The notes under the pieces are model-generated. The model made no database searches. It was not told where the DNA came from and saw only the letters and a program-made list of their open reading frames with translations. Positions 4,818-57,720 of a stretch of DNA of 64,000 bases are shown here, one piece after another; positions within the stretch are counted from its first letter, which is position 1, and the number at the start of each line of letters is the position of its first letter. The DNA comes from Candidatus Parcubacteria bacterium (GTDB lineage: Bacteria; Patescibacteriota; Minisyncoccia; Phycocordibacterales; Zambryskibacteraceae). The translations under genes and the position numbers were made by a program. The stretch is taken from NCBI GenBank assembly GCA_019661785.1, contig JAIFWP010000002.1:39059-103058 (forward strand), read 5' to 3'.

Positions 4818-4841
4818 AGGCGCGTACGATTGTACGCGCCT
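4818..4841 (-). terminator. Rho-independent terminator after the GC-rich KH-domain gene
   Basis: A perfect 10-bp stem aggcgcgtac / gtacgcgcct with a gatt loop. On the minus strand it is followed by TTTCCATTTGTCAT. Confidence 0.6.
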
Positions 4842-4852
4842 GTTGCTTGTGA

Positions 4853-5383: not shown

Positions 5384-5434
5384 CCTCCTGTGGGTTTAGG
5401 AGCATGGCTGCTCCGAGTGAAAGAACTCGCTATA

Positions 5435-21994: not shown

Positions 21995-22032
21995 AAGGGC
22001 GGAGAATTCTTCCTAAAGAATTCTCCGCCCTT
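21995..22032 (-). terminator. Strong rho-independent terminator after GC-rich lipoprotein gene
   Basis: A perfect 15-bp stem aagggcggagaattc / gaattctccgccctt with an 8-nt loop. On the minus strand it is followed by TTTTCGTTTAT. Confidence 0.65.
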
Positions 22033-22037
22033 GGTAT

Positions 22038-22502
22038 TCAGTTCTCGCCACTTCTCTTGCGGGCCTTCTTGGTACAGGTCGCGCCATTTGGCGAGTCGAG
22101 CTTGTCGACCGTGAGGAGCTTCTGGTGCCCGGAGTAGTATGTATCGACGCCCCAGGGACCGTGCTCAGCGAGGCCGATCTCCTCTCCGCGAGAGTCATAC
22201 GCCTTCACCACGACGTGCATCCAGTAGCCGTAGTCTCCAGCGCCCATTGGCCGGCGGATCTCGACCGTATGCGACGAGTCCTGCAGGATTATCGTCGCCG
22301 TCTCGAGCGTCGTGTGGTCGATGGTGAAGACAGCGATGGCAGGTGCGCACTCGTTCGAGACGAGGAGCACGATGTGCTGGCGCGATAATGGTGAAATGTT
22401 CCTCGGCGCCTGCACGTCACGTCCGCTCTGGGGCACCCACTTCGCGCCCGTAGCGCAGCCTGTGAGAGCCACAAGCCCAAGCAAGTAAAGAATCTTTTTC
22501 AT
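22038..22502 (-). CDS. Hypothetical lipoprotein (GC-rich, foreign-looking)
   Basis: It starts MKKILYLLGLVALTGC, a signal peptide plus lipobox. G+C is clearly elevated, and many spurious ORFs appear on the other frames. Confidence 0.5.
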   Translation of the reverse strand: MKKILYLLGLVALTGCATGAKWVPQSGRDVQAPRNISPLSRQHIVLLVSNECAPAIAVFTIDHTTLETATIILQDSSHTVEIRRPMGAGDYGYWMHVVVKAYDSRGEEIGLAEHGPWGVDTYYSGHQKLLTVDKLDSPNGATCTKKARKRSGEN

Positions 22503-22599
22503 CGGAATGGCTCCGTTGAGGGTCTACATATTATTATACACCCATGTTTTGATTATGTCAAGGGGCAGTAAAGGCAGGGTGAGGCCGTATAATAGAGCC

Positions 22600-36085: not shown

Positions 36086-36988
36086 TTAGATTCTTACTCT
36101 TATGCCTTCAGGGATATTGCCGAAGCAAGTGAATTTGCTTTTGTAGCTCGCCAGCTTGGCGCTAGTCATAAATGAGTTATAACGAGAGCTATTGCAAATG
36201 AGGTGATATTGAAAGTCGACATTGCCTGTGACCTGAAGGTCTCTTAGGAATCTTGCTACCTGAGTCTCAGTCGTATCTGGCGTAAGGCTAATGTCAATAC
36301 AGCTTCCAGCTTGAGACAAGTCTTTTGTGTTACAAACAGTCAATGGCGTTGTAGATGTGGCAAAAGGAAAGGCCGCGCTTATCTCCCATGGGACGGCCAC
36401 ATACTCTCCTTTGGCATCGTCTATCGCGTCACGGACAACACTCACTTTAGACCAGAAGGCCAAGAGCCGATCATTCAAGGTTTTCTGTACGTAACACGGG
36501 TTATTGGTGCAGGCGTTTGAGTCTATCGGGATTATCGCTGCGATGGGCACGCAATTATTGGTGCAGCCTAATTCGGCCGCAGTTTTAGTTGCTAGGCTTC
36601 CCTTGATTGCCTGGCCTTGCTTGACTGGCTGCAGGGCAAACTGGATATTAACTAGGCCTGGATTCACTGTATTAAGTATCGTGTAGGCGCTTATGGCCAA
36701 AAGCAGCCCGATGAGAGCGTTTTGTATAGTCTCTTTGGCGGAGGATTTGCCGCTGAAGGCATCTGTCGACATGTACTGTATGCCGCCAATGATAATGCGT
36801 ATGACTGCCAATCCGCCAGCGATAGCGATGATGAGCTTTATCATGGCCGGGATGTACGTGCTCACATCTATAGAGCCGACTATGTCCCCGCCTTTTCCTA
36901 GGGGAAGTTTTTCAAGGAGGGTGTAATCAGCCGCGTGGAGATGTGTGATAAGGAAGGAGAGCATGTTAGAAGCTGTTCTGCTTGCCAA
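36086..36988 (-). CDS. VirB2/TrbC-like pilin fused to a Cys-rich C-terminal domain
   Basis: The N-terminal ~115 aa form two hydrophobic helices (MIKLIIAIAGGLAVIRIIIGGIQYM...ALIGLLLAISAYTILNTVNP), as in TrbC/VirB2 pilins. A 180-aa domain with 12 Cys follows. Confidence 0.4.
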   Translation of the reverse strand: MASRTASNMLSFLITHLHAADYTLLEKLPLGKGGDIVGSIDVSTYIPAMIKLIIAIAGGLAVIRIIIGGIQYMSTDAFSGKSSAKETIQNALIGLLLAISAYTILNTVNPGLVNIQFALQPVKQGQAIKGSLATKTAAELGCTNNCVPIAAIIPIDSNACTNNPCYVQKTLNDRLLAFWSKVSVVRDAIDDAKGEYVAVPWEISAAFPFATSTTPLTVCNTKDLSQAGSCIDISLTPDTTETQVARFLRDLQVTGNVDFQYHLICNSSRYNSFMTSAKLASYKSKFTCFGNIPEGIRVRI

Positions 36989-37712
36989 ATTGTACCAGGA
37001 AACTCTTGTCGAGCGGCTGCACGAGGGCAGATTTGTTCCTTGCCTCCACTGTTACCCTAGAGCTGCCGCTCGAGTTGTCTGGTATGCGGTAGGTGACCTT
37101 GTTGCCTGAGCGGTCGTCGCTCCCGCTTGCGAGCCATCGGTATGTCTCAGCCGGAGCAGTGCGGCTTGATACGCCAGAGAAGAACGGTAGGGCTGAGAAG
37201 GAGACCTCTTGTCCGCCGAGGTCGAAGCTTTCCCCTATGGCACGGTGAAGCATGAGCCCATAGAGAGGGCTATCTTCAACAACTAGAGTCTCTGAGGTCG
37301 TTGGGATGAGGCTCACCGAAGCGCTGCCTACATCTGTTTGTCCGTCTGGCAACGTGACGTCGACTCGAACTTCGGTTGGGAGAGAGAGGACAGAGTCATT
37401 CCATGAGAGGGTCCTCCTCCCTGCTCCAGAGCTGTTGCCGAGCACGGTACCGCCTTGAGTCCATTTATATATAAGAGCGTTGGGGTTAGTGTTTCCGCTC
37501 ACCACAGCCACCAAAGTTATCCTGGTCTGGTGCCCCCATAAAGCACGTCCAAGGTAGAAGGGAGGAGTGTAAGTCTCTCCTTGCCAGAGGATGTCCACCT
37601 TGGTTGGCGCTGGCAGAGTCTGTGCGGATGCTCCCACTGGCAGAATCAAAGTCAAAAAAAAGAGATGAGGGAGCAGAGCTCTTCGAAATGTCATCTGTCT
37701 ATTATATACCAA
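36966..37712 (-). CDS. Secreted hypothetical protein (signal peptide) in T4SS-like operon
   Basis: A 248-aa protein with an N-terminal signal peptide (LTLILPVGASAQ), a beta-rich sequence, and no known family. Confidence 0.4.
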   Translation of the reverse strand: MVYNRQMTFRRALLPHLFFLTLILPVGASAQTLPAPTKVDILWQGETYTPPFYLGRALWGHQTRITLVAVVSGNTNPNALIYKWTQGGTVLGNSSGAGRRTLSWNDSVLSLPTEVRVDVTLPDGQTDVGSASVSLIPTTSETLVVEDSPLYGLMLHRAIGESFDLGGQEVSFSALPFFSGVSSRTAPAETYRWLASGSDDRSGNKVTYRIPDNSSGSSRVTVEARNKSALVQPLDKSFLVQFGKQNSF

Positions 37713-38067
37713 CAGTTTTCTTGATTTTGTAGTCTAGGGCTATCCGAGCGATAAGACCGGTCCAGACAGGAAGATCGCCCAAGAATGGGATTAATTTTAT
37801 GACGACACTGGCGCCGATTAGCTTGCCCCTTCTTGCTGTGAAGAAGTCGAGACCCTTCAGTTTGAACCAAAGCCAGAAAGTAAAGATAGCCACTGGCGGT
37901 ACAAGCAGCCATCCGAGGAAGATAAAATCCAAAAGAGCTTGCATTGCGTCGAAAAACAAAGCCACAGCTATCATGAAAGCAATAGTTTTGTTGTCGAGCT
38001 CGGGCTGTTTTTTGGACTCAGGCTCTGTTGGCGGTTGCGGTGCTTGTTGCTGTGGTTGCGGCGGCAT
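37702..38067 (-). CDS. Small 3-TM membrane protein with Pro/Gln-rich N-terminus, immediately downstream of VirB4
   Basis: A 121-aa ORF. It overlaps the VirB4 stop by 50 nt. Confidence 0.35.
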   Translation of the reverse strand: MPPQPQQQAPQPPTEPESKKQPELDNKTIAFMIAVALFFDAMQALLDFIFLGWLLVPPVAIFTFWLWFKLKGLDFFTARRGKLIGASVVIKLIPFLGDLPVWTGLIARIALDYKIKKTVGI

Positions 38068-39889
38068 TTGGTTCCTTAGACTCCTCTAATTCTAACTTGG
38101 CTTTCTTCATGGCGAGGACCTGGCCTGGGTCTGAGGTGATGATCTGGTCCTCGGTATAGCTTGCAATGACCTTAATGGCCACATGCTTCAATCCGGCAAA
38201 GAAGATACCCTCCCCCACATCAGACTCGAGGAGGAGATACTTCTCTTCGTCGGTGAGGTTAAAGGTCTTCTGCAAGTTGTCGATAGTGGTCGGCGACTGC
38301 TTCAGGAGTATTTGGATGGAGGAGTTTGTGATGATAGGCAGACCATAAGGCGATTTCAAGAAGTCGCCTACGTCTTGAGTGATGGTGGCGACGCCCAAGT
38401 AGTACTTGCGTCCGCGCTTCACGAGGCCGGTGAGGAAGCTCGCTGTGTCGTCCGACTTCATCATCCACCAGGCCTCGTCGATGACGAGGAGGCGCTTCTT
38501 CAGCTCTCTTCTCACGGCATTCCAGATGAAGTGGGTGACGATGTACATGGCTATGGGCTTCAACTCATCTTCCATATCGCGGAGCGAGAAGACAACGAGC
38601 TTCTTCGATATGTCGACATTTGTCGGTCTGTTTATGAATCCTGACCAAGTGCCCTTGGTGTACTTTGTAAGGCGTTGGGCTAAGGACTCCCCTCCCTCAA
38701 GGCCGGTGAGCACGAGCTCGAAGTCGCTCATGAGAGGCGGCTCTATAGAGCGGAAGTCAGAGTCGGCAGTGATGTCTTTAAGAGCATAGGTCTCAGTGAT
38801 GGCGCGGTCGATGAGAGCATCTTCCTCGGCGGTGAGTCCGCCCATCATGAGGCGGAAGAGGCCCACGAGGTTAATGATGTTCGAGCGCAAGACATTTGCC
38901 GGGTCTTCGTCTGCTACTGGTATCGGAAGGTCGAAGGGGTTGATGTGGTGCTCGGAGTTTAAGGAAATCTTGAAGTACCTGCCGCCCACGACCTCGGCCA
39001 TGTACTCGTACTCGTTTTCTGGGTCCATAATCATGACATCTGTGTCGAACATGAGTGTTCTCAAGATTTCGAGCTTGGTGAGGTAGCTCTTGCCGGCACC
39101 GGACTTAGCAAAGGTGACGGAGTTGTAGTTCTCAAGACTGAATCGGTCGAAGAGCACGAGCGAGGAGTTGTGCCTGTTCACTCCGTAGAGGATGCCCTTG
39201 TCGCTCGTGAGGTCAAAGGAGGTGAATGGGAAGAGCGAAGAGAGCGGTGATGAATTTAACTTCTGGTGCACGCCCAGGAGGTCGTCACCAAGTGGCAGAG
39301 TCGACTTGTAGCCCTGCTCTTGTTGGAAGAGAGCCGGCTTCACATAGACGAGCTTGGCCTCGAGGATGCCCTTGATCTCGTTCTCGATTTTGTCGAGCTC
39401 AAGCTCGGAGTCGGCGTAGATAGTTATATAGAGCCCAACGTCGAAGAGCTTTTCCTGTGCTTGCTGGAGCTGGTCGCGCAAGTTCTCCAGGTCTTGGTAG
39501 GCCACATCGAGCATTGGATCGCGCACTAAGCCCTTGTCCTCTCTCTCGTGAATCTGCGATTCTACCTCGGCCACCTTCTTTTGGAACTGGTGCAGTATCT
39601 TAGACGTCTCGATAGGATGCACGAAGATAGCCACGTCGAAGACCTTGTCCATATTGAGTACCGGCGAGAACCACTCTTCGGAGAGGAAGCGCGGATAAGA
39701 GATGACGAAGAAGCTCCTAAGTATCTTCTCACCCAGGTCGAGTCCTCGGGGAGAGATTTTCAATGCTGAGGGGGCGATAATGTCTTTCAATTCCAATGCT
39801 CCGGCCTGGTAAACCTCAGCTGGCAGGATAGAAGCGAGATTTGGCTTCTCTTCCTTCTTCCTTCCTAATAATGTGTCGAAGAGTCCCAT
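38018..39889 (-). CDS. virB4: VirB4/TraE-family type IV secretion ATPase (Gram-positive type), C-terminal 623-aa part
   Basis: Carries RSFFVISYPRFLSEEW (the TraE/TcpF-type motif), Walker A FAKSGAGKSY, and Walker B LLVIDEAWWMM. Confidence 0.75.
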   Translation of the reverse strand: MGLFDTLLGRKKEEKPNLASILPAEVYQAGALELKDIIAPSALKISPRGLDLGEKILRSFFVISYPRFLSEEWFSPVLNMDKVFDVAIFVHPIETSKILHQFQKKVAEVESQIHEREDKGLVRDPMLDVAYQDLENLRDQLQQAQEKLFDVGLYITIYADSELELDKIENEIKGILEAKLVYVKPALFQQEQGYKSTLPLGDDLLGVHQKLNSSPLSSLFPFTSFDLTSDKGILYGVNRHNSSLVLFDRFSLENYNSVTFAKSGAGKSYLTKLEILRTLMFDTDVMIMDPENEYEYMAEVVGGRYFKISLNSEHHINPFDLPIPVADEDPANVLRSNIINLVGLFRLMMGGLTAEEDALIDRAITETYALKDITADSDFRSIEPPLMSDFELVLTGLEGGESLAQRLTKYTKGTWSGFINRPTNVDISKKLVVFSLRDMEDELKPIAMYIVTHFIWNAVRRELKKRLLVIDEAWWMMKSDDTASFLTGLVKRGRKYYLGVATITQDVGDFLKSPYGLPIITNSSIQILLKQSPTTIDNLQKTFNLTDEEKYLLLESDVGEGIFFAGLKHVAIKVIASYTEDQIITSDPGQVLAMKKAKLELEESKEPNAAATTATSTATANRA

Positions 39890-39890
39890 A

Positions 39891-40532
39891 TTACTTTTTT
39901 ACTAGAGCTTTCTCTGTCTCGCCTGGGTTGAAGGCTTTATAAAACAGCTCTATCACTTCGTCAGTGCCGAGCCTTGCCACTCGTATGCCAGTGCGCACTA
40001 GCCCCTGCTCAACGATAGCCAGGCGTTCCTCGAGCTGGGTACGAGCTTCCTCGAAGCCGGAGGTCTTCTCCCCTGCCTTATCCTTAGAGCTTTTCTTGCC
40101 GAGGAAGGAGGTCAGAGCGCCGACCTTCTCCCCTGAGATGGCACCCGGGTTATAGGAGACTACTACAAAGAAGTTCTTGGTCATAATGTTAGTCGACTCG
40201 GTGAAGCTCCTTATGAACTCTATATACTCCCTGGTCTGGATTTTCATAAGGTCTACTTGCTGCTCCTTCTCCTGCTTCTCAAGGAGAGCGAGATAGGGGC
40301 GGATGTCGAGTTTTCTCGATTGGATGACGATTTGGACCGAGAAGTCGAGCGAATTGAGGAAGTCTTGGAACTGGAGGAGAATAGCGTTCTTCTCATCCTC
40401 GGATTTGAGGGAGAAGTTCAAGGACGAGGCCAAGAGGATGCCTCGCATGCCGCCATCCTTCTCTAAGATGATGCCGTCGCGGACTTCTTTGATAGGAACG
40501 AAAGATTGAGTCGAGCTTGAACTCGGTGCCAT
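39891..40532 (-). CDS. VirB4 N-terminal-domain-like protein (separate ORF)
   Basis: FVPIKEVRDGIILEKDGGMRGILLASSLNFSLKSEDEKNAILLQFQDFLNSL resembles the extreme N-terminus of Gram-positive VirB4/TraE proteins. The ORF ends in a TAA-n-ATG junction with the ATPase ORF. Confidence 0.4.
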   Translation of the reverse strand: MAPSSSSTQSFVPIKEVRDGIILEKDGGMRGILLASSLNFSLKSEDEKNAILLQFQDFLNSLDFSVQIVIQSRKLDIRPYLALLEKQEKEQQVDLMKIQTREYIEFIRSFTESTNIMTKNFFVVVSYNPGAISGEKVGALTSFLGKKSSKDKAGEKTSGFEEARTQLEERLAIVEQGLVRTGIRVARLGTDEVIELFYKAFNPGETEKALVKK

Positions 40533-40539
40533 GAGTAAA

Positions 40540-40977
40540 TTATACAGTATCTTTGGTCTGATCTTTTGTAATGGGGTTCGACTGATTCTTCACATCGAGC
40601 TCGAAGGTGAGGTCACGGAGCTTTGACTGTGACAGCTTGGGCACGTATACCTGGTCGTAAGGTTTGCCGGCCGGATCATCAGCCTTCCCCTTAGTCTCTT
40701 CACTCCGCTTCCATATATATAGTCTGCCGCCCACGTAGTACTTAAAGAAATCTTCAATGATGAGGGCGAAGGGGCGCTCGTTGACCTTGAAGAAGGCTAG
40801 GGCCAAGCCTAGACCGGCTACAGGCAGGGAGAGGATGATGGCTATGAACTTGGGCAAAAGGGTGAAGAGGACCGCGCACAAGCCCGCCGCTCCGGCGAGG
40901 TAGACGAACTGCTTGAAGGTCAAAGGGCCGAATATCTTGTCCTCCACCTCAATGTATTGTGGTACTTGGAAGCGCAT
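40540..40977 (-). CDS. PrgI-like (VirB3-analogue) small membrane protein
   Basis: MRFQVPQYIEVEDKIFGPLTFKQFVYLAGAAG followed by two TM helices matches the PrgI-family N-terminal signature. Confidence 0.45.
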   Translation of the reverse strand: MRFQVPQYIEVEDKIFGPLTFKQFVYLAGAAGLCAVLFTLLPKFIAIILSLPVAGLGLALAFFKVNERPFALIIEDFFKYYVGGRLYIWKRSEETKGKADDPAGKPYDQVYVPKLSQSKLRDLTFELDVKNQSNPITKDQTKDTV

Positions 40978-40978
40978 G

Positions 40979-41620
40979 TTAGTTGGTGGGCTCTCTATAT
41001 GGATCTAAGCCGCCAGGGTACTTCGAACTTTGGCTTGGGCTTGCGACGACCTGGGTCAGTTTCTCTGTTATAAAATCCTTCGGCTTATCGGCCGGCATGC
41101 TTGGCAAGTTGGCGGGAGCAAGAGAGGTCTTTGACGCATTCATCACAGGAGGCTCGAGCTTGAGCTCTTGAGGAGGGGCCTCAAGTGGGATGCGATTTAC
41201 AGAAGGCGCGCTCGCCCCGCTCTGCTCGACGACAACTCTCGGAGCAATCTCCTGTGTAGCCGGCTTAGTATCTGGCATGCTCTGCAAAGTCTCATCGGTT
41301 TTCTGTGCTAATTCAGTCGCTTTGGCTAATATGACTGCAAAGACTTTATCCTCAATCTCTTTGGCAAGGGTCACCGCTTTAGACATATCGATGCCGAGCT
41401 CTCTAGCAATATTAGCTGCGAAGTTATCATCGCTATCGAAGCTATAGATGATGAGCATCGTCTCAGTTTCAAGGCTATCGGCCTTGGCTTCATCCAGCCC
41501 ATTCATTATCGAGATGCCTCGAGTGAGCTTGCGCCAAGGAGTGAGTGAAATGGCTCTCTGCACTGGCTGAGGCAAGGTCTTGAATTGCTCTTGTATTAAC
41601 TTGTCTGTGTCTTGCTCCAT
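40979..41620 (-). CDS. Hypothetical cytoplasmic protein in T4SS-like operon
   Basis: The ORF track starts at 41698 and overlaps the upstream gene. Met27 (41620) is preferred, giving a helical N-terminal half and a Pro/Ala/Ser-rich C-terminal half. Confidence 0.35.
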   Translation of the reverse strand: MEQDTDKLIQEQFKTLPQPVQRAISLTPWRKLTRGISIMNGLDEAKADSLETETMLIIYSFDSDDNFAANIARELGIDMSKAVTLAKEIEDKVFAVILAKATELAQKTDETLQSMPDTKPATQEIAPRVVVEQSGASAPSVNRIPLEAPPQELKLEPPVMNASKTSLAPANLPSMPADKPKDFITEKLTQVVASPSQSSKYPGGLDPYREPTN

Positions 41621-41621
41621 A

Positions 41622-43664
41622 TTATGGCGTTGGTGTTGCTGGCGGCGGCACTCCTCCTCCAGTTGGCGGAGTTGCTGGCGTGGCAGGGGCTCCCGCATCT
41701 TCTGCGGCTTGTCCAGCTTTGTTTAACTCCTCGGCCAATTTGTCAGCTGGCTTCTTATCCTTTGCTTTTTTACGTATAGCTATTGCTCCGGCCAGGTTCT
41801 CTCTCTTTACTGGACCGAATATGAGTACGCGGCCGGTTGTATCAAAGCCCACATATCTGTTGCCCATGCCGAAGGTCTTCTGCTCCTCAATCTCTTTGGC
41901 GTAGGCTTCCGCCCTGCTTCTTTGTGCGCTTTTAACTTCCTCTGGCGCCCAGCCAATTCCTGCTGCCTTGGCCTGATCTTTGGCTTCTTTTTCGCTGAGG
42001 CCAGTTGCCTTGAGCCTCTCCACTTCGCGCGTCCTTTCTGTTTCCAGCCTGTCCATTTCAGCCTTAGAGCCCTTTTTATCAAAGCCGTTTTTAATAAGAT
42101 CTAATTGCTTTCTCTTGCGTGCCTCGTCTTCATTGACTCCCTTGAGATCGTCAACATCCTTCTGGGCAGCGGCTATCCTGATTGCGTTGCCAGTTTGCTT
42201 GGCCGCCTCGAGCTTTTTCTCCGCGTCAGAAATGACGATGTCAGACGGTTTGAAGTTCTCAGCAGCTTGCTCCGCGCCCTTGATCTTGTTCTTCAAGTCA
42301 GCAGCGAAGCCTCCCTTCTGAGCTTTGCCCGCATCAAGCGCTCCGCCAACTGGAGTCGCGCGCAGGTCGAAGCTCGATGCCGCCGTACCTCGGCCCGCAG
42401 CGAGAGTGTACTTAGCAAGCTTGGAGAAGCGAGATGAAGAGACGGCCGTTTTCTTCAGGGCCTCGCTGTCGGCTACTGCTTGACCGAGTCTGCCGACAGT
42501 ACCGCGATTGAAGCGCCCTGCCAGGCCAAGGCTTGTGCCTCCAGCCAGTCCAAGCGCTGCGCCAGTGAGCTTCTTTACCCCGCTTCCCGCTCGCTCGGCC
42601 CAGCTCTTCGAGACGATGAGCGAGACTATGAGGAAGGCGATGATGACTATGAAGTTGAGGAAGGTCGGCACGAGCCCCGCTTCGAAGTGGGCACTCGCTG
42701 CGCCGTTTGCCGCTGTTTTGACGGTTCCTGATAGGGCGGCGCTGAAGTCGCTCGGTGCCCCGTTCAGGTTCGCTTTTGTGATGCCTTGGATGACGACTAT
42801 AGATACCCAAGTGAGGAGGAAGTAGATAGGTGCAAAGAAGGCTTGTCCCAAGAGGGCGTCCCACCACTGTCCGCTATACTTCTTCACTCCGGGCAAAATA
42901 TTAGCGACAAAGGCTATTGGTGAAAGGATGAGGACAAAGATGAGCACGACGTAGCGTATGACGAACATGATACCTATAGCGAAGAAGATAAACGCCGAAA
43001 CTAGAAGGACGATAGAGGCCAGGATGCCCATGATGGAGAAATTTGATATATGCGATAATGCGCCGCCAGAGGCTTGCCAGAGAGTAGTGATACCCATGGG
43101 TTCGACGATAGCGTTTGATATGCCGCTTGAGAGGAAGTCAGCACCGGCACTAGGCGCTATAGCGCGGTAGAAGGTAAGGGCCAGCAGGTTCGATGCGTCG
43201 ATAATGACTTTGGTAAAAAATAGACTGAAGTTTATGAGTATGGCGGCTATAACTGTGCGCACGATAGTCTCGCGATAGTTCCCTTCCCCAAAGATGGTCA
43301 TAATGGCCGTGTAGAGGAGGACGAAGATGAATCCCATGTTGGCCACGTCGCGTATGACTCCCCAGGCCGTGTCGATGGCCGGCAAGTTGGCGAAGTTCTC
43401 CGCCATCTTTGTCACGGTGAAGTAGACTGCGGCATTGAGCGCCACGCCTCCGAGCATGGTGAGGAAGCTAGTTAGCTTCAAGAGCACGAGGACTAGCGGT
43501 GAGAGGATGGTGCCGATGAAGTCGAGCGTGACAAGGCCTGCGGCTTTGGCCCCAATGCTCGCGATGGCATCAGGGATAACGTTCTGGGCATGCGCTACAG
43601 GGACAAATCCAACTATGCTTATGGCGAGGACCAGGGCGGCGATGTATGGGGCGCTCTTTCTCAT
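41622..43664 (-). CDS. VirB6/TrbL-like polytopic membrane protein with long coiled-coil and Pro-rich tail
   Basis: A 680-aa protein with a signal peptide and at least 6 TM helices in its first 370 aa. A ~280-aa Lys/Glu/Ala-rich region follows, ending in PATPATPPTGGGVPPPATPTP. Confidence 0.45.
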   Translation of the reverse strand: MRKSAPYIAALVLAISIVGFVPVAHAQNVIPDAIASIGAKAAGLVTLDFIGTILSPLVLVLLKLTSFLTMLGGVALNAAVYFTVTKMAENFANLPAIDTAWGVIRDVANMGFIFVLLYTAIMTIFGEGNYRETIVRTVIAAILINFSLFFTKVIIDASNLLALTFYRAIAPSAGADFLSSGISNAIVEPMGITTLWQASGGALSHISNFSIMGILASIVLLVSAFIFFAIGIMFVIRYVVLIFVLILSPIAFVANILPGVKKYSGQWWDALLGQAFFAPIYFLLTWVSIVVIQGITKANLNGAPSDFSAALSGTVKTAANGAASAHFEAGLVPTFLNFIVIIAFLIVSLIVSKSWAERAGSGVKKLTGAALGLAGGTSLGLAGRFNRGTVGRLGQAVADSEALKKTAVSSSRFSKLAKYTLAAGRGTAASSFDLRATPVGGALDAGKAQKGGFAADLKNKIKGAEQAAENFKPSDIVISDAEKKLEAAKQTGNAIRIAAAQKDVDDLKGVNEDEARKRKQLDLIKNGFDKKGSKAEMDRLETERTREVERLKATGLSEKEAKDQAKAAGIGWAPEEVKSAQRSRAEAYAKEIEEQKTFGMGNRYVGFDTTGRVLIFGPVKRENLAGAIAIRKKAKDKKPADKLAEELNKAGQAAEDAGAPATPATPPTGGGVPPPATPTP

Positions 43665-45400
43665 GGGTTTGTTTCCTGAGTGCTGTCAGATACCTTAATA
43701 CTGCCGCAAGATACTGTGTCGATTGTATTTTGATCGGCATCTAGGGCTGATACGCTGGCCTTCTTGTCGCCCTCGCTAGTATATTTCAAAGCTAGGGTGT
43801 CAGAAGTAGCGTCGGAGCTGACATCGTCGCCCGACCATACGTACGAGGCGGTAGTGGTCGGTGCAGAGTTCACGGCCCATGTTACGAGAGCATTCGTATT
43901 AACGAAGGTCTTGTCTGGTGAGCAGGACAAGGCGATAGGCTGGCCATCGGGGTTGTTCACAGTGCCAATGCCGCGGTACTGGCACTTCTTTGCTATGCCT
44001 GGTACTGGGTCTCCGCCGAAGGATGAGATAGCGCATTTTACATTATTTTCAGCCGTACCAATATTATAAATACCGTTGGCGCCAAAACGTACCTGTTTTG
44101 TTCCGGGAAATGAGCATGTGCCGCCCTCGCTTGCACAGGTTATCCAGTTCGTGGATCCTTGGCCTTCCACCACGACACCTCTAGTCTGCCCGTAGTATGC
44201 GCATGTCTTAGGCACGACATTAAATTGAGCGGGCAGTTTGACAGCCCCGAAGACATCACTCGAACACTTGGCCCCATCAGTAAGAGTAAGCTCTATGTAA
44301 GTGCCGGCTGCCCCATAGCGCACCTTCTCCTCTCCGTCGAAGACGCACTGCTCGCCTTCCTTGGCGCAAGTAATCCATCCGAATTCAGGCATCTTCAAAG
44401 TAGATGAGTCCGCGCCAGCATTGAAGCTGTCGTTATACTTGCTGCTGAAGAGCCCCTTTGGACCGAAGACGTATCTCTGCAAGAGCCCGCTCGCGAAGGC
44501 TCCTACGAGCTGGTCTACCTGAGTCGCATTGACGAGCTTGTTCATGCCAGTTGGGAGAGTGTCATTGAGCTGCTTGGCGATGACAGAGCCAGGTGTGACA
44601 ACGTCGCCGTAGTCTAAGCAGGTTCCGGCAGGCTTATCGAGGTCGAATTTGCCGTAAGTGAAAGTGACATTCTCCTCTGGGACCACCCCATTCAGATAAT
44701 CCTCTATTACATCATCCGGTATCTTCGGATTCTTAGCCAAGCAGGGCTTGTAGCTTAGGAAGCCGCTGCTTATCTGCCTGTCTGTCTGAGCTAAGCCGAG
44801 CTCGTTCGCGAGCCTCGAGTCGATGTTTGACTTAATGTTGATATAAGAGCCGTATGGGTTGTTGTTGTCTTGCTGGGTCATATCGAACCAGGCTCCCCAT
44901 CCCCCGGCACTGAAGCTCTTGTAGAAGTCGGTAAGGTTCCTCCCTATCTGGTCGAAAGTACATTGGGGCTGGTATTCCTGCACATATTGCTGCACGAGCG
45001 AGAGCTTGATCTGAGCCTGGAAAGGCGAACACACGAAGCCTAAGTTGGAGCCGCTTATCGCGTCCGTAATAACTCCCTCGCCGATTTTGCCGAAGTATCT
45101 TTTCGGATTTGTCACATAGGCTGGGTTGCCCTCGAAGCCGGTATTGGCCCAGGTGATAGTCGACTTGACCATATTGTCGATAATCCTCCTTGCATAGACT
45201 TGCGCGGCGGCGTCGATAAGCCTCTTAGCCAGAGCCGCTACGTCCGTCGTGATAGAGGTGTCGACGATACCGAATATCGCTTGCGCCTTAGGCGCGAAGG
45301 CCGGGGCATAGAAGAAGCTTGCCACTGTGAGCATGAGCAAAGTCCCCAGGATCTTTCCGCTCACTTTTTCTGCAAAGTTTTTTGTAAGTTTAGAGTCCAT
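43661..45400 (-). CDS. Large secreted protein with duplicated 4-Cys ~75-aa modules
   Basis: A 579-aa protein with a signal/TM at its N-terminus. The modules WITCAKEGEQCVFDGEEKVRYGAAGTY...KC...KTCAYYG and WITCASEGGTCSFPGTKQVRFGANGIY...KC...KKCQYRG form a tandem repeat. Confidence 0.4.
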   Translation of the reverse strand: MDSKLTKNFAEKVSGKILGTLLMLTVASFFYAPAFAPKAQAIFGIVDTSITTDVAALAKRLIDAAAQVYARRIIDNMVKSTITWANTGFEGNPAYVTNPKRYFGKIGEGVITDAISGSNLGFVCSPFQAQIKLSLVQQYVQEYQPQCTFDQIGRNLTDFYKSFSAGGWGAWFDMTQQDNNNPYGSYINIKSNIDSRLANELGLAQTDRQISSGFLSYKPCLAKNPKIPDDVIEDYLNGVVPEENVTFTYGKFDLDKPAGTCLDYGDVVTPGSVIAKQLNDTLPTGMNKLVNATQVDQLVGAFASGLLQRYVFGPKGLFSSKYNDSFNAGADSSTLKMPEFGWITCAKEGEQCVFDGEEKVRYGAAGTYIELTLTDGAKCSSDVFGAVKLPAQFNVVPKTCAYYGQTRGVVVEGQGSTNWITCASEGGTCSFPGTKQVRFGANGIYNIGTAENNVKCAISSFGGDPVPGIAKKCQYRGIGTVNNPDGQPIALSCSPDKTFVNTNALVTWAVNSAPTTTASYVWSGDDVSSDATSDTLALKYTSEGDKKASVSALDADQNTIDTVSCGSIKVSDSTQETNP

Positions 45401-46992: not shown

Positions 46993-48969
46993 CTAGAAGT
47001 CTATCTCAAGCAAGGGGCGGCGTCTCTTGTCGGGCCTTGGCATGTCGGCCTCGTCGAAGGCGACCTCCTCCGTAAGCTCTGGCGGCACATCGAAGATAAA
47101 TTCGGACGGAATGTTTACCTCTCTTTGGCCGAAGACTGTGCGCACTTGGGCGTAGGAGAGGAATATCTTCTTCCTCGCTCGAGTGAGTGCAACGTAGAAG
47201 AGCCTGCGCTCCTCCTCCGCCTCCTCCGCTGTGATGCCGTCCCTTGTCACTTTGTGATGCGGGAAGAGTCCGTCCTCAAGCCCTGTCACGAAAACTGTAT
47301 CGAACTCGAGACCCTTAGAGGCGTGCACGGTCATAAGTCTTACGCCCTTCTTCTCCTTCTTGCCGTCTTGGTCGAGCTCGTCTTGGTCACTCTGGAGCGC
47401 CGCGTCAGAGAGGAAGGTCTCAATACCAACCTCAGGCTCGAGATGGTCATAGCGCGCGGCGAAGGCCGAGAGCTCGTAGGCGTTCTCAAGTCGGTCTAAG
47501 TCGTCGTCCTTGCCCTGCTTCCACTCTGCTTCCATGCCGCTCGCCGTGATAATGAATGCGACAGTCTCCGATGGTCTCGCGCTCTTGGCTTTGTCTGCAA
47601 TGTCCGCGAGGAGTTTCCTGAAGTTATTTATCTTCGACCTAGTACCTGCCGGGAGAGAGGCCTCGTCCTTGGCGAAGACCTTGGCTACCGTGGCTTTGCC
47701 AATCCCCCGCGCAGGCACATTGATAACTCGCTTTATGTCGGCCAAGCAGTCTGGATTTAGCGCTGCTCGCAGGTACGAGAGCACATCCTTAATCTCTCTG
47801 CGCTCGAAGAAGCGCGTACCAAGGAGCTGATATGGGATTTGTCGCTCGAGGAAGGCTTCCTCCAAGACTCTCGACTGGAAGTTCGCTCTATAGAGCACAG
47901 CTATCTCCTCGCTCGGAGTGCCAGCGCGCAGCTCGGCCTGAGCTCTCTCTGCCACAAAACCTGCCTCAGAGACTTCGTCGAAGCCGGTGTAGAGACCTAT
48001 CTTCTCCCCTGCTCCTTGCGAGGTGAAGAGGTTCTTCTTAACTCTAATCTTGTTCTTCTCGATGACAGCATTCGCGGCGTCGAGGATGTTCTTGCTCGAA
48101 CGGTAGTTCTCCTCAAGAAGGATGACTTTGGCGGCGGGGAAATCCTTCTCGAACTTGAGGATATTCTGGATATCAGCTCCGCGCCAAGAGTAGATGTTCT
48201 GGTCTATGTCGCCCACCACGCAGAGATTCTCCGCCTCTCCAACGAGAAGCCGCGCTATCTCGTACTGCACTTTGTTCGTATCTTGGTACTCGTCGATGTG
48301 GACGTACTGCCAGACCTTCCTGTAGTAGTCGCGTACCTCCGGGTTGCCGCGCAAGAGGCGCACAGTTTTCAAGAGGAGATCGTCGAAGTCGAGAGCGTTC
48401 GACTCCTTGAGAGCCTTCTCATACTCGCGCCAAATGTCGACGACCACTCCGGAGAAGTATCCTCCTTCGGCATGAGCCGCGTACTCCTCTACCACGGTGT
48501 CGCGGCCCTTCTCCTTCGAGATGATGGAGAGTATGCGCTCGGGCTCGTGAGTCTTAGGGTCAAGTCCTTGGTTTACGAGGGCCTCCTTAACAGCGCGCTT
48601 GGCGTCGTCTTTGTCAAAGATAGTAAAGTGCCGTCTCAAGCCTATCCTGTGACCCTGCTCCCTTAGAATGTGTACTCCAAGAGAGTGGAAGGTCGAGAGG
48701 AAGGGACGCTCGTTCATCGACACGGGCCTGTTCAACCCCTTGTCCTCGTCTAGCATCCGCCCGACTCTCTCGCGCATCTCTTTGGCCGCCTTGTTTGTGA
48801 AGGTGATGGCGAGGATAGAGGACGCGGCAACACCCTTGTATATGAGGTGTCGGATGCGCTCAGCAATGGTCTTTGTCTTCCCTGCCCCGGCGCCAGCCAG
48901 TATGAGCAAGGGGCCCTCCGTGGCCTCTACTGCCTCCCTTTGTTTAGCGTTCAAATGGCTAAAATCCAT
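46993..48969 (-). CDS. pcrA: ATP-dependent DNA helicase PcrA/UvrD family
   Basis: Carries Walker A AGAGAGKTKT, motif II VDEYQDTN, and the remaining SF1 helicase motifs. Confidence 0.85.
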   Translation of the reverse strand: MDFSHLNAKQREAVEATEGPLLILAGAGAGKTKTIAERIRHLIYKGVAASSILAITFTNKAAKEMRERVGRMLDEDKGLNRPVSMNERPFLSTFHSLGVHILREQGHRIGLRRHFTIFDKDDAKRAVKEALVNQGLDPKTHEPERILSIISKEKGRDTVVEEYAAHAEGGYFSGVVVDIWREYEKALKESNALDFDDLLLKTVRLLRGNPEVRDYYRKVWQYVHIDEYQDTNKVQYEIARLLVGEAENLCVVGDIDQNIYSWRGADIQNILKFEKDFPAAKVILLEENYRSSKNILDAANAVIEKNKIRVKKNLFTSQGAGEKIGLYTGFDEVSEAGFVAERAQAELRAGTPSEEIAVLYRANFQSRVLEEAFLERQIPYQLLGTRFFERREIKDVLSYLRAALNPDCLADIKRVINVPARGIGKATVAKVFAKDEASLPAGTRSKINNFRKLLADIADKAKSARPSETVAFIITASGMEAEWKQGKDDDLDRLENAYELSAFAARYDHLEPEVGIETFLSDAALQSDQDELDQDGKKEKKGVRLMTVHASKGLEFDTVFVTGLEDGLFPHHKVTRDGITAEEAEEERRLFYVALTRARKKIFLSYAQVRTVFGQREVNIPSEFIFDVPPELTEEVAFDEADMPRPDKRRRPLLEIDF

Positions 48970-49007
48970 ATATTTAGGGCTATTATATCACACCTCTAAT
49001 TTTCTCC

Positions 49008-49035
49008 TTGACAAACTCATCTATTATGATATAAT
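49008..49035 (+). promoter_or_regulatory. Consensus sigma70 promoter of GC-rich lipoprotein gene
   Basis: TTGACA at 49008-49013 is separated by a 16-nt spacer from TATAAT at 49030-49035. A strong SD AGGAGGG follows at 49071-49077. Confidence 0.55.
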
Positions 49036-49081
49036 GGTAGAAGGACCGTTGTTTGGCAAATCACCATCTCAGGAGGGCCCC

Positions 49082-49855
49082 ATGAACATCCGTTTTCTCG
49101 CTGTTGCGTCACTTGCTCTACTCATCGCCGCCTGCTCCTCCAAGGAGCCCGCACCGATGTCGCAGGCCGCTCCCGTCGACTCTGTCGTTCCCTCCTCGGC
49201 ACCCGCCGTGGACTCCGCCAGGATCCGGCATGAGCGGGAAATCCGTTCCGAGTATGCCGATCTGATCCGCAAGGACAGCATCGCCGACGCTCCGGCAGTT
49301 CGCGAAATCGCCCTCGGCCTCAATGCAGAGCGCGCGTGGACTGGCCGCAGTTTCTGCCAGCGGTACGAGCGGACTCACAGGTGGGCACGTCTCAGAAACG
49401 ACCTCGCTTCGTCGCCCGCCCTCGCAACATGGCTCCAGATCAGCCGGGAGGAGGTGCGGCGCCATTACATTGCCAACGTCAAAGCCATCGCACCGATGCT
49501 TCTCTCACAGGAGGGCAAGCGGTCATCCGAGTTTTTGGACAATTACTACATCTACTCGGAATGCGATGGAGAGATGCTCGACGTGATGGAAAAGGTGATG
49601 AGCTGGGTGCTCGATTCCGGACTCGAACCGGCGACTCTTGGCTTGACTCGTCAGGCTGTCCGCGCCAAAGCGGCCGGCATCTTCGCGAGAGAGGTCCGCG
49701 GCGCACTCAAGCAGGGCGACTACGGCCTCGTGAACTGCCACTGCGAGAGCTCGATTCCTTTTTATTTCGATGAGTACAAGTTTACTCGTCGGGAGCTCGG
49801 TTTTACCGAGAAGGAATGGTCGCTGACTCTGAATGACAGCACCAAGAAGTCCTGA
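49082..49855 (+). CDS. Hypothetical lipoprotein (GC-rich, foreign-looking)
   Basis: It starts MNIRFLAVASLALLIAAC, a lipobox. The ORF track begins at 48668 inside pcrA, so the internal ATG at 49082 is preferred. The gene has high G+C and CGG/CGC Arg codons, with no ATA codons. Confidence 0.55.
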   Translation: MNIRFLAVASLALLIAACSSKEPAPMSQAAPVDSVVPSSAPAVDSARIRHEREIRSEYADLIRKDSIADAPAVREIALGLNAERAWTGRSFCQRYERTHRWARLRNDLASSPALATWLQISREEVRRHYIANVKAIAPMLLSQEGKRSSEFLDNYYIYSECDGEMLDVMEKVMSWVLDSGLEPATLGLTRQAVRAKAAGIFAREVRGALKQGDYGLVNCHCESSIPFYFDEYKFTRRELGFTEKEWSLTLNDSTKKS

Positions 49856-49873
49856 GCGCATCGCTCAGGCATA

Positions 49874-49910
49874 GGGTCCAGGAACTACACGTTCCTGGAC
49901 CCTTTCTCAT
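49874..49910 (+). terminator. Rho-independent terminator
   Basis: A perfect 12-bp stem gggtccaggaac / gttcctggaccc with a tacac loop, followed by TTTCTCATTGTTTATT. Confidence 0.7.
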
Positions 49911-49945
49911 TGTTTATTCGGTATAAATAAGGACATAAAACCTGG

Positions 49946-49973
49946 TTGCCTGGCTAGGTGGATGAGGTATAAT
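49946..49973 (+). promoter_or_regulatory. Putative promoter of LysM-M23 peptidase gene
   Basis: TTGCCT is separated by a 16-nt spacer from TATAAT at 49968-49973. Confidence 0.4.
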
Positions 49974-50098
49974 AGATACCTACCGCAAAGGAGCCCTGAC
50001 CGCCCGACCAAATACAAGTTTAACCCTCGTTTATCTCTAAGTTTCCACAATTTGATACCTCTAAGTCACGCGTTAGCCTCATTGTCGGGCTTTTTCTT

Positions 50099-51112
50099 TT
50101 GGTCTCTATTGTAGGGGCGGCTGAGGCTCGAGCTCAGGGGGACAAATTCGCGAAGCTCCCCAATATCATCACGAGCCAGACCTCGCAGACTATGCCTCTC
50201 CTTGAGGCTCATTTGAACTATAACCCCGTAGCCTCGGCTGGAGGCAAGCTCGCCGTCGTCGACAATAGCGCCCTAGAGCCTCTTACCATAGACAGCGGGG
50301 ACACCTTCGCCGATGCGGGGCAGAACGGAGGCCAGATCTCGACATACATAGTTAAGGAGGGCGATACCCTATCGAGCATCGCCAAGCTCTTCGGCGTCTC
50401 GCAGAACACCATCGTCTGGGCGAACAATGTGAAGGGCGGGCGCATCACTCCTGGCCAAGAGCTCGTCATCTTGCCGATCTCCGGCGTGCGCCACACTGTG
50501 GTTAGAGGTGACACCATCGCTACTCTCGCCAAGAAGTACAATGCCGATGTAGGCGACATCCTTTCATACAACGGTTTGGCCTCTGATGCCAAGCTTACAG
50601 CAGGCGACATCATCATAGTCCCCGATGGTGAAATAGGTTCGATACCAAGCACTCCTGCCGGCAGCAAGCCGGGCGTGTGCGGCATCAAAGTCTCTACTTA
50701 CGAACGACTCCTGGTTAACCCTTGTAGCCTCCCTTCCTATCCTGGCTACTTTGCGAGACCTCTTGCCGGAGGCATCAAATCTCAGGACCTCCATGGCTAT
50801 AACGCTATAGACTTTGCGGTTCCACAGGGCACGCCTATCATGGCGGCTGCAGCTGGTACTGTTATCGTCTCCCGCACTGGCGGATACAACGGCGGCTACG
50901 GCACGTATGTAGTTATAAGCCATCCTAACGGTACCCAGACTCTCTATGCTCACATGAGCGTTAACGGCATGACTCTGGGTCAGAAGGTCACTCAAGGCCA
51001 GGTTATCGGTGCTATTGGTTCGACTGGCAAGTCTACCGGCGCCCATCTCCACATCGAAGTCCGCGGCGCCCATCTCCACATCGAAGTCCGCGGCGCCAAG
51101 AATCCGTTCTAA
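50099..51112 (+). CDS. LysM-domain M23-family peptidoglycan endopeptidase
   Basis: It has two LysM repeats (YIVKEGDTLSSIAKLFGV, HTVVRGDTIATLAKKY) and an M23 domain with HxxxD, ending in HLHIEVR. The annotated start is TTG. Confidence 0.7.
   Translation: MVSIVGAAEARAQGDKFAKLPNIITSQTSQTMPLLEAHLNYNPVASAGGKLAVVDNSALEPLTIDSGDTFADAGQNGGQISTYIVKEGDTLSSIAKLFGVSQNTIVWANNVKGGRITPGQELVILPISGVRHTVVRGDTIATLAKKYNADVGDILSYNGLASDAKLTAGDIIIVPDGEIGSIPSTPAGSKPGVCGIKVSTYERLLVNPCSLPSYPGYFARPLAGGIKSQDLHGYNAIDFAVPQGTPIMAAAAGTVIVSRTGGYNGGYGTYVVISHPNGTQTLYAHMSVNGMTLGQKVTQGQVIGAIGSTGKSTGAHLHIEVRGAHLHIEVRGAKNPF
51038..51097. repeat. Perfect 27-bp tandem duplication (2 copies plus 6 nt) inside M23 peptidase gene
   Basis: ggcgcccatctccacatcgaagtccgc occurs at 51038-51064 and again at 51065-51091. 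This encodes GAHLHIEVR twice, in frame. Confidence 0.85.
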
Positions 51113-51756
51113 ACGAAGTTCACTAGGACATTTAATACGAAGGCTAAGGTGAGGTGCGCCACCACTCCTGGCAGTACGGACTTTGTTCTATAGGTGATGA
51201 AAGTAAATATAAGACCTATTACGAAGGCCCAAAGTACTTCCGTAAGAGGCTTCCCTATATGGAGGAGGGCGAAGATGAGGTTAGATATCCATAAGGCGTG
51301 GTACTTGTATCTGTCCCAAAGGCCAAAGAAGAGGAATCCGGTGAAGATGAACCCCTCAGCCAAGTAATATATTGCTCCAAGTAGGACTGTGAGTAATAGG
51401 AAAAGCCCAAACCCCTGTTTGACCGCATAGTACTCTTGGAAGGCAGGCTGCTTCGACAGCCCCACTACGATAGTAGCGAGGGTGAGCTTCACAGCCTCAG
51501 ACATATTCTCTGGCAATCGCAGGCCAAAGTCCCGCAGAGGTCTGCGGAAGACGAATTTTATAATGAGAGCGGGCACCACAAGCATGAGGACAAGCGCTCC
51601 GAGCGCCTCGGCTACGTAGTCCGAAGCATCGCCCTTGGCAAATATGTGATGTGAAAGGCCGTATATGACAGGCCAGTTGCTATAGAAGGCTAAAACCGAG
51701 GCCATTATTATGAGCGGCAGCGGTTTTTGAAGCCAAGTTCTTACTTTGTGCTGCAT
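51109..51756 (-). CDS. CPBP-family intramembrane metalloprotease (CAAX protease/Abi domain)
   Basis: Carries EGFIFTGF (EExxFRG-like), NLIFALLH, and HLTLAFVLN on a multi-TM scaffold. Confidence 0.5.
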   Translation of the reverse strand: MQHKVRTWLQKPLPLIIMASVLAFYSNWPVIYGLSHHIFAKGDASDYVAEALGALVLMLVVPALIIKFVFRRPLRDFGLRLPENMSEAVKLTLATIVVGLSKQPAFQEYYAVKQGFGLFLLLTVLLGAIYYLAEGFIFTGFLFFGLWDRYKYHALWISNLIFALLHIGKPLTEVLWAFVIGLIFTFITYRTKSVLPGVVAHLTLAFVLNVLVNFV

Positions 51757-56013: not shown

Positions 56014-56943
56014 TTGTGCGACATGACCATCGCCACAGAGATTGAAAGGCTGAAACGGGAATTCCTCGAGCACACGGAGATAGCCAAGGGCCGCGCGGTG
56101 AAGACTATAGAGAACTACGACCACTACCTCACTCGTTTCATCGAGCAGAGCAAGGTCAAGAAGGCTGCTGACATCACTGAGGAGGTGGTGCGCGAGTTCC
56201 GCCTCTGGTTAAACCGTCAGTCGACGGGACACAAGTCTCCGCACAATGAAACTCTATCGAAGAAGACGCAGAACTACTACCTCATCGCGCTCCGCGCCTT
56301 CCTCAAGTTCTTGGCCAAGCGCGGAGTGAAGTCTCTAGCGTCAGAATATATCGAGCTAGCTAAGGTGGGCGAAAGGCACCTCGACCTCATCTCCTCCGCC
56401 GAGCTCGGCCGACTGCTCGACTCGGCCAAGGGCGAGGACCTAAAGAGCCTCCGCGACAAAGTCATCTTGGAACTTTTATTTTCTACCGGGCTCCGCGTCT
56501 CTGAGCTATGCTCGCTCACTACGGATATCGACTTCCAGGCTGGCGAGTTCCCTATCAAGGGCAAGGGCGGCAAGATTCGCGTGGTCTTCATCTCGGACGA
56601 CGCTCTCAAAGCGGTTAAGGACTATCTCAAGGCTCGCAAGGACATGGAGGAGTCGCTACTAGTGAGGATTACCCAAGCTGGCAAAGTAGCCGGGGCTCTC
56701 GGCCGCCGCTCTGTCGAGCGCATTATTAAGGAGAGAGCTATTCAAGCCGGCATATCAAAGAAGGTCACTCCCCACGTCATGCGGCACATGTTCGCTACGG
56801 ACCTGCTCTCTAACGGCGCTGACCTGCGCTCAGTCCAGATGCTCCTCGGTCACGCCAACATCGCCACCACGCAAATCTACACCCACGTCACCGACAAAGC
56901 TCTCCGCGACACGCATAAGAAGTTTCATAGCCGGGGGAAGTGA
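56014..56943 (+). CDS. xerC: Tyrosine site-specific recombinase XerC/XerD family
   Basis: An N-terminal SAM-like domain and a C-terminal catalytic domain with R...HxxR...Y (HVMRHMFAT, LLGHANIATTQIYTHV). Confidence 0.8.
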   Translation: MCDMTIATEIERLKREFLEHTEIAKGRAVKTIENYDHYLTRFIEQSKVKKAADITEEVVREFRLWLNRQSTGHKSPHNETLSKKTQNYYLIALRAFLKFLAKRGVKSLASEYIELAKVGERHLDLISSAELGRLLDSAKGEDLKSLRDKVILELLFSTGLRVSELCSLTTDIDFQAGEFPIKGKGGKIRVVFISDDALKAVKDYLKARKDMEESLLVRITQAGKVAGALGRRSVERIIKERAIQAGISKKVTPHVMRHMFATDLLSNGADLRSVQMLLGHANIATTQIYTHVTDKALRDTHKKFHSRGK

Positions 56944-57690: not shown

Positions 57691-57720
57691 TTGACAACTT
57701 CGGTGGGGTGTGGATATAAT
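57691..57720 (+). promoter_or_regulatory. Consensus sigma70 promoter upstream of nusA
   Basis: TTGACA at 57691-57696 is separated by an 18-nt spacer from TATAAT at 57715-57720. Confidence 0.6.

Follow-up and report, generated by a model that had tools for sequence, protein, structure and literature searches.

How did a GC-rich lipoprotein gene with its own promoter and terminator come to stand between pcrA and a LysM-M23 gene in a Candidatus Parcubacteria genome? The gene, KW800_01035, lies in a 64-kb stretch of a metagenome-assembled genome (MAG) with 52.1% G+C, called the window hereafter, meaning the whole stretch of DNA that was analysed. The window also carries dnaA/dnaN, yidC, a cluster resembling a type IV secretion system (T4SS), pcrA, ksgA, comM, nusA and clpP. 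An original prediction, made from the sequence alone, had interpreted the gene as captured from a GC-rich donor. Our results point instead to a lineage-specific accessory gene for an envelope lipoprotein, which is probably old, vertically inherited and strongly transcribed, and not a recent import.

To describe the relatives used below, loci numbered L001-L021 come from pcrA relatives, including the ten described below that lack the gene, and L081-L088 carry members of the lipoprotein family, as does the window. The family alignment, A1, contains 11 cluster representatives including the window protein. The complete expression kit that had been predicted was found, with the promoter, the Shine-Dalgarno sequence, the coding sequence and the terminator of a monocistronic lipoprotein unit all present. 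The elements of the unit and its right boundary are as follows.

48999-49016, plus strand: 18-nucleotide (nt) block ATTTTCTCCTTGACAAAC, made up of upstream bases and the -35 hexamer, identical at the orthologous locus L081.
49008-49035, plus strand: sigma-70-type promoter TTGACA-16-TATAAT with a TG extension before the -10 hexamer, 12 of 12 matches.
49071-49077, plus strand: Shine-Dalgarno sequence AGGAGGG, 4 nt before the ATG at 49082.
49082-49855, plus strand: coding sequence of a lipoprotein precursor of 257 amino acids (aa), identical to the NCBI protein KW800_01035, with frame and start backed by alignment A1.
49851-49869, plus strand: first 3' hairpin, with an 8-bp stem over the stop codon (from folding).
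49873-49913, plus strand: intrinsic terminator with a 13-bp perfect stem (49873-49903), a 5-nt loop and a T-rich tail (from folding).
49946-49973, plus strand: separate promoter of the LysM-M23 gene, TTGCCT-16-TATAAT, which forms the right boundary and corresponds to the sole promoter between pcrA and M23 in L001, a relative without the lipoprotein gene.

The segment 49000-49913 is an autonomous one-gene transcription unit. The consensus promoter, the strong Shine-Dalgarno sequence and the coding limits all agreed with the original prediction, and so did the perfect terminator stem, except that it has 13 pairs and not 12. The start at 48668 inside pcrA, given in a list of open reading frames (ORFs), had been called an artefact, and this was confirmed because the homologues all align from Met1. 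Folded together in a 75-nt 3' region, the two hairpins reach -38.8 kcal/mol (z = -8.35 versus shuffles), and the T-tail of the terminator is only moderate (TTTCTCATTGTTT). At the same position, L081 has a terminator that is not homologous to that of the window, function being kept. We found no second exact copy of the 18-nt block in the window, and the GGGTATAATTAA context of the LysM-M23 promoter is common to the window, L081 and L001. With these elements, the near-perfect extended sigma-70 promoter and the strong ribosome-binding site would drive synthesis of the 257-aa precursor, and the double hairpin terminator would insulate the unit from the downstream LysM-M23 hydrolase gene, which keeps its own promoter.

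The history of the site was reconstructed from 80 pcrA loci of species-representative genomes, with the neighbours of the window gene placed on the closest ones by tblastn. The order g53719-dksA-like-comM, then M23, then the divergently arranged pcrA-ksgA, is conserved across the clade. In ten relatives (L001-L003, L010, L011, L013, L014 and L019-L021), LysM-M23 is the immediate neighbour of pcrA, at a distance of about 300-600 bp, and tblastn revealed no lipoprotein homologue at the pcrA locus of these ten Paceibacteria-type relatives. Moreover, the gap between pcrA and M23 in L001 contains one promoter, corresponding to the window M23 promoter at 49946-49973. Taken together, the ten relatives without the gene and the single promoter in the L001 gap indicate that the unit was inserted between pcrA and the promoter of M23.

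The insertion is shared with the closest relatives. The best homologue, P0002 (about 45-46% identity), is encoded on L081 at the same site, in the order ksgA-pcrA, lipoprotein, LysM-M23, comM, with pcrA divergent from the lipoprotein gene. L081 is the nearest relative found, its PcrA being 78% identical to that of the window, while the window and L081 proteins are each 66-67% identical to that of L001. Its orthologue has a composition like that of the window gene (GC 0.58, and 0.73 at third codon positions, GC3), and its locus keeps both the 18-nt block ATTTTCTCCTTGACAAAC and a promoter with 12 of 12 matches. The identity between the two lipoproteins (45%) falls within the span of the neighbouring envelope genes, 31-53%. 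Another homologue, P0003 (36% identity), is encoded on a 3-kb contig, for which the gene map gives a truncated minus-strand gene, the lipoprotein gene, LysM-M23 and a minus-strand gene; judging from this arrangement, it is probably at the same site. Comparison of the window with L081 showed 48 identical codons at conserved residues versus 44.3 ± 4.6 expected, and this chance-level agreement means that synonymous sites are saturated. The shared site in the nearest relatives, the absence farther out and the saturation are most parsimoniously explained if the gene was gained once, long ago, and descended vertically thereafter. The unit would have entered the gap between pcrA and M23 once, in the common ancestor of the window lineage and at least one sister lineage, and would have been inherited vertically since then with its promoter conserved. 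The pcrA neighbourhood, whose comparison the original prediction had proposed as a check, therefore gives a mixed answer: the gene is an addition with respect to the ten relatives, but the nearest relative has an orthologue of the same composition at the same site. Same-locus orthologues of similar composition, which had been named as evidence against capture, exist in the nearest relatives, although not across the wider clade. Recent capture is contradicted by L081, probably by P0003, and by the saturated synonymous sites.

The composition of the gene had been the main argument for a foreign origin. Among 57 window ORFs, its G+C (0.597 vs 0.521 for the window, +7.7 points, z = +2.1) is the second highest, in agreement with the original description. 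To split this excess, we back-translated the protein according to the synonymous usage of the window, which gave an expected GC of 0.559 versus a mean of 0.525, so that about half of the excess is due to an amino-acid content rich in Ala, Arg and Ser. The residual attributable to codon choice is +0.039 (z = 1.6), and core genes show similar values (dnaA, +0.044; xerC, +0.043). The per-codon log-likelihood under window usage (z = -0.6), the share of host-preferred codons (rank 20 of 57) and the GC3 of 0.725 (pcrA, 0.71; dnaA, 0.76; xerC, 0.74) are all ordinary. What does deviate, besides the GC excess, is the absence of ATA, which had been noted correctly (0 of 13 Ile codons vs 37%, p = 0.002), and an over-use of CGG (8 of 24 vs 5%, p = 1.3e-5) that no native ORF equals. 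These two deviations are real but isolated, and the description of the codon usage as clearly foreign was an overstatement. The modest GC excess would thus reflect in part the Ala/Arg/Ser content and in part a preference for G/C-ending codons.

An exhaustive phmmer (HMMER) search of 1.84 billion cluster representatives defined a family consisting of the window protein and ten relatives, 234-279 aa long. Word-indexed protein searches, whether started from one sequence or from a profile, returned nothing but the query and a single distant member, and a tighter alignment, A2, found no relatives among JGI metagenome contigs and viral contigs. Pairwise identities are 16-46%, with no recently shared copies. 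One relative comes from a named genome, a Candidatus Uhrbacteria MAG (L083); the others are on metagenome contigs with small housekeeping neighbours like those of the Candidate Phyla Radiation (CPR), the members at the pcrA locus being in CPR synteny. None of the 1.84 billion representatives yielded a homologue from a named non-CPR GC-rich lineage, so the search for the proposed donor lineage returned only CPR or CPR-like contexts. As far as the sequence data go, the family appears small, fast-evolving and uncharacterised, and so far limited to contexts of CPR/Patescibacteria type.

Outside the pcrA locus, the members in L082 and L088 lie between a xerC-like gene on their upstream side and rpsO/NYN/pnp on their downstream side, those in L085-L087 between uvrA and uvrB, and that in L084 beside ruvX. 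A consensus-like promoter and a terminator of its own accompany the gene in four of the five relatives with upstream sequence (L081, L082, L084 and L085); the L083 member has no obvious promoter, and the L088 member has a hairpin terminator, its contig beginning too near the gene for judging a promoter. Family members often adjoin DNA-repair or recombination genes (pcrA, at 46993-48969 in the window; uvrA/uvrB; ruvX; the xerC-like integrase), which is probably a coincidence in small genomes. Directly downstream of the family member in L082 (4951-5262) there is also a small lipoprotein gene (103 aa, MKRFILAGLAAVLFAAC...) with its own consensus-like promoter and a GC of 0.526 versus about 0.43 in its host. 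Across these loci, the GC3 of the lipoprotein gene compares with that of its neighbours as follows.

L081: lipoprotein gene 0.73, neighbours 0.42-0.53.
L082: lipoprotein gene 0.74, neighbours 0.30-0.56.
L084: lipoprotein gene 0.67, neighbours 0.30-0.58.
L088: lipoprotein gene 0.63, neighbours 0.48-0.55.
L085: lipoprotein gene 0.36, most neighbours about 0.29.
L083: lipoprotein gene 0.87, neighbours about 0.85.

In overall G+C, the excess over neighbours in L081-L084 is +5 to +14 points. The GC3 of pcrA changes from 0.30 in L001 to 0.53 in L081 and 0.71 in the window, yet in L081 and in the window alike the lipoprotein gene stays at about 0.73. As GC3 is at or above that of the neighbours in every host, GC-richness is a trait of the family and not a donor fingerprint in the window genome. 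The clade itself spans a genomic G+C of 0.34-0.55 over loci with conserved gene order (L001-L021, L081 and the window), with pcrA GC3 of 0.30-0.71. This spread means that calls of foreignness based on composition need lineage-specific baselines, and that such calls can mislead in a clade of this kind. The literature searched contains no description of a host-independent GC3 excess in such a family. As a separate observation, a vWA/TerF-like gene in L085 (18348-19109) has a GC3 of 0.75, the other genes of the contig being at about 0.29, and is a far stronger compositional outlier than any gene of the window.

The gene had also been grouped with other GC-rich cassettes of the same stretch, and this grouping was supported by the distribution of promoters. 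Four perfect TTGACA/TATAAT promoters were found in the 64 kb (5434-5463, 22533-22561, 49008-49035 and 57691-57720), against a chance expectation of about 0.02 by our arithmetic, and all four are correctly placed upstream of genes, the fourth driving nusA. With this excess and this placement, they are not background noise. Three of the four drive the three GC-richest of the 57 ORFs, two of which encode lipoproteins; the hypergeometric probability of this match is about 1.4e-4, again by our arithmetic. Besides the unit at pcrA, these comprise a second lipoprotein unit and a third unit of the same build.

21995-22561, minus strand: second GC-rich lipoprotein unit, with promoter TTGACA-17-TATAAT (22561-22533), 12 of 12 matches.
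22038-22502, minus strand: 154-aa lipoprotein (MKKILYLLGLVALTGC...), GC 0.606 and GC3 0.77, the window's highest.
22032-21995, minus strand: terminator of the second unit, 17-bp perfect stem.
4818-5463, minus strand: third unit, with its promoter (5463-5434, 12 of 12 matches) inside the 3' end of an RluA-like gene.
4853-5383, minus strand: 176-aa ORF with a C-terminal KH domain, GC 0.576.
4841-4818, minus strand: terminator of the third unit, 10-bp stem.

The 154-aa lipoprotein has no Pfam match, and the sole other homologue found is a 97-aa fragment with 78% identity. At the third unit, the plus strand has a longer ORF (4883-5626), which is probably not a real gene.

Regarding the product itself, three segments can be distinguished in the precursor.

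49082-49135, plus strand: type II signal peptide, MNIRFLAVASLALLIAA cleaved before the lipobox Cys, with the Cys18 codon (TGC) at 49133-49135; Cys18 is invariant in 11 of 11 members.
49136-49198, plus strand: Pro/Ala/Ser-rich tether, residues 19-39, predicted disordered (predicted local distance difference test, pLDDT, below 50 at residues 17-37) and poorly conserved.
49199-49831, plus strand: all-alpha helical-bundle domain, residues 40-250 (AlphaFold pLDDT 80, predicted template-modelling score 0.71).

The signal peptide has a basic n-region, a hydrophobic core and the lipobox L-I-A-A-C, which meets a lipobox definition of the PROSITE PS51257 type ([LVI][ASTVI][GAS]-C), and its N-terminus matches the lipoprotein model NF050142 weakly (E = 0.013, below cut-off). 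Together with the invariant cysteine, this supports the assignment as a lipoprotein, and KW800_01035 is, on sequence grounds, most likely a membrane-anchored surface lipoprotein of an ultrasmall CPR/Parcubacteria bacterium. As the lipobox suggests, the precursor would be exported and lipid-modified at Cys18, and the mature protein would sit on the outer face of the membrane, where a flexible Pro/Ala/Ser linker of about 20 residues would carry the helical domain of about 210 residues. The AlphaFold model was built from the family alignment, the single-sequence model being unusable (pLDDT 43). Across the family, C92 and C161 are invariant and C219/C221 largely conserved, in a C-x-C-E motif, and these four cysteines might pair as disulfides or bind a metal. 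Neither the window protein nor any of the 11 members could be assigned to a family in Pfam, NCBIfam or PHROGs, a profile search against PDB sequences had no meaningful result, and fold comparison of the model with the PDB showed no specific structural relative. Neither an Lgt nor an LspA gene was found in the 30 window ORFs scanned, which are part of the window's ORFs.

Several observations weigh against an old gene kept by descent. The first is the over-use of CGG in the window gene. In the lower-GC hosts L081, L082 and L084, the family is a strong outlier in GC3 and codon usage, which transfer would also produce, and the lipoprotein gene ranks last in host-preferred codons in all three. In addition, same-site orthology is supported at the DNA level by one contig (L081) and through a gene map alone by another (P0003). 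Finally, nearby ribosomal-protein genes rise only slightly in GC3 (rplS, 0.66; rpsO, 0.55), which weakens the case for selection linked to expression. We infer that the preference for G/C-ending codons most plausibly results from gene-specific selection tied to very high expression or messenger RNA stability; nevertheless, either gene-specific synonymous selection or repeated transfer from a GC-richer CPR pool may be the source of the GC3 excess.

Part of this evidence could be accommodated by recent capture from a GC-rich donor, the composition then being a donor signature that has not been ameliorated. The high G+C (0.597 vs 0.521, z = +2.1), the CGG and ATA deviations (8 of 24 vs 5%, and none), the ten more distant relatives without the gene at the locus, and the unit's own promoter and terminator would all fit. 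However, a gene gained so recently should be absent from close relatives, whereas this one is present in L081 (46% identity) and probably at the site of P0003 (36%), with synonymous sites saturated, and is absent only from more distant relatives. This explanation is largely refuted by L081; since, in addition, overall codon usage is ordinary for the window genome, half of the GC excess is amino-acid composition and the 1.84 billion representatives hold no homologue from a named non-CPR GC-rich lineage, we regard it as very improbable. A slower form of exchange accounts for more of the data. The gene could be a moron-like cassette circulating among CPR from a GC-richer pool, with the gap between pcrA and M23 as a repeatedly hit hotspot and the GC3 excess reflecting transfer that is recent relative to amelioration. 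The family does occupy at least four unrelated loci (pcrA/M23, xerC..rpsO, uvrA/uvrB and near ruvX), carries its own promoter and terminator in four of five members with upstream sequence, exceeds its host in GC3 at 7 of 7 loci (by 0.01 to 0.32) and comes last in host-preferred codons in the three lower-GC hosts. The three GC-richest window ORFs are all driven by perfect promoters, of which the window has four, and the region upstream of pcrA holds different genes in other relatives. Yet the flanks of the unit show neither an integrase or transposase gene nor terminal repeats or a target duplication, and we detected there no significant direct or inverted repeats and no tRNA nearby; the nearest gene of the integrase family, which is XerC-like, lies 6 kb off (56023-56943). 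There is no nucleotide likeness between cassettes beyond the promoter consensus, and PHROG, phage DNA, plasmid protein and viral-contig comparisons gave no matches, hence no phage, plasmid or viral copies. Two loci are each common to at least two lineages, consistent with descent, and identities of 16-46% leave no recently shared copies. On balance, circulation of this kind seems unlikely.

A functional explanation for the location was also considered, in which the lipoprotein would work specifically with the adjacent LysM-M23 peptidoglycan endopeptidase, as its anchor, adaptor or inhibitor, much like lipoproteins that regulate cell-wall hydrolases, and would be kept at the locus for that role. 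This might be suggested by the co-oriented position directly upstream of LysM-M23 in three lineages and by the extracytoplasmic nature of both products. Nonetheless, a strong terminator stands between the two genes and each has its own promoter, other family members do not adjoin M23 genes, most relatives have M23 without the lipoprotein, and the protein bears no structural likeness to known hydrolase regulators, so that we consider such a partnership quite unlikely. Two further candidates were rejected. An integron cassette does not fit a unit with its own promoter, with no attC-like imperfect palindrome beyond the terminator and with no integron integrase nearby. De novo origin in situ was discarded in view of the homologues that other CPR lineages carry elsewhere in their genomes. 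Overall, an old accessory gene, gained once and transmitted vertically, remains the probable explanation.

Considered singly, the locus is unremarkable: an accessory gene for a lipoprotein, well equipped with expression signals. It does define an unannotated family of surface proteins, without fold assignment and found in CPR-type contexts only, whose members are candidates to take part in attachment to hosts or in upkeep of the envelope in episymbionts. The only surprising element is the family-wide, host-independent GC3 excess. Together with the link between perfect promoters and G+C, it makes a small testable puzzle of synonymous-site selection versus cassette exchange in reduced genomes. 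The family holds a GC3 of about 0.63-0.74 in hosts at about 0.3-0.55, even where orthologues at one locus have saturated synonymous sites, and a rather doubtful but broader possibility is that ultrasmall bacteria either keep a class of strongly transcribed surface genes under synonymous selection (for instance, for messenger RNA stability or translation in tRNA-poor cells) or draw on a pool of GC-rich moron-like cassettes that move without recognisable mobility genes.

Several observations were made in the neighbourhood. Between the M23 gene and comM, at 51109-51756 on the minus strand, there is a gene for a membrane protease of the Rce1/CPBP type with below-average GC (0.489), which is absent in L001 and L081, where M23 abuts comM; it is a second lineage-specific insertion within 2 kb. 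A leader motif, AAGTTTAACC..TTTAT, separates the M23 promoter from the M23 coding region (window 50010-50065; L081 8260-8310; L001 5770-5825, minus strand) and is conserved in the three closest genomes only. An Rfam scan of 48900-50300 gave no match, so the motif is not a known riboswitch. In L001, the frame that encodes the M23 transmembrane segment remains free of stops ahead of the first ATG/GTG/TTG, and the true start of M23 or the leader element may be unusual. Farther away, at 36086-45400 on the minus strand, lies the T4SS-like cluster (a PrgI-family protein, a VirB4/TraG P-loop ATPase and a T4SS pilin-like protein). After it come genes for three large proteins, secreted or membrane-bound, for which Pfam gave no match. 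The two of these genes nearest ksgA are conserved beside it in several relatives, although weakly (22-53% identity).

The locus can finally be compared with known systems. CPR genomes are rich in small proteins, secreted or in the membrane, that evolve fast and have no known function. Like these orphan envelope genes of CPR/Patescibacteria, the window family is narrow, fast-diverging and unannotated, has a predicted surface location and lies near T4SS-like and cell-wall genes; unlike them, it can be traced at defined loci across lineages and shows a host-independent GC3 excess. With type II monoderm lipoproteins processed by Lgt and LspA, the window protein shares the signal peptide, the invariant cysteine and the low-complexity linker that follows it, whereas its mature domain fits no family in Pfam, NCBIfam, PDB sequences or PDB folds, and the processing enzymes were not found among the window ORFs scanned. 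A phage moron is an independent transcription unit that brings its own promoter and terminator and deviates in GC content (PMC3594210). The window gene resembles morons in being a single gene with its own strong promoter and terminator, added with respect to relatives and with a GC above that of its neighbours, but it differs in lying between the chromosomal genes pcrA, ksgA, M23 and comM, and not in a prophage, and in being, as we read its history, old and vertically inherited at its site.

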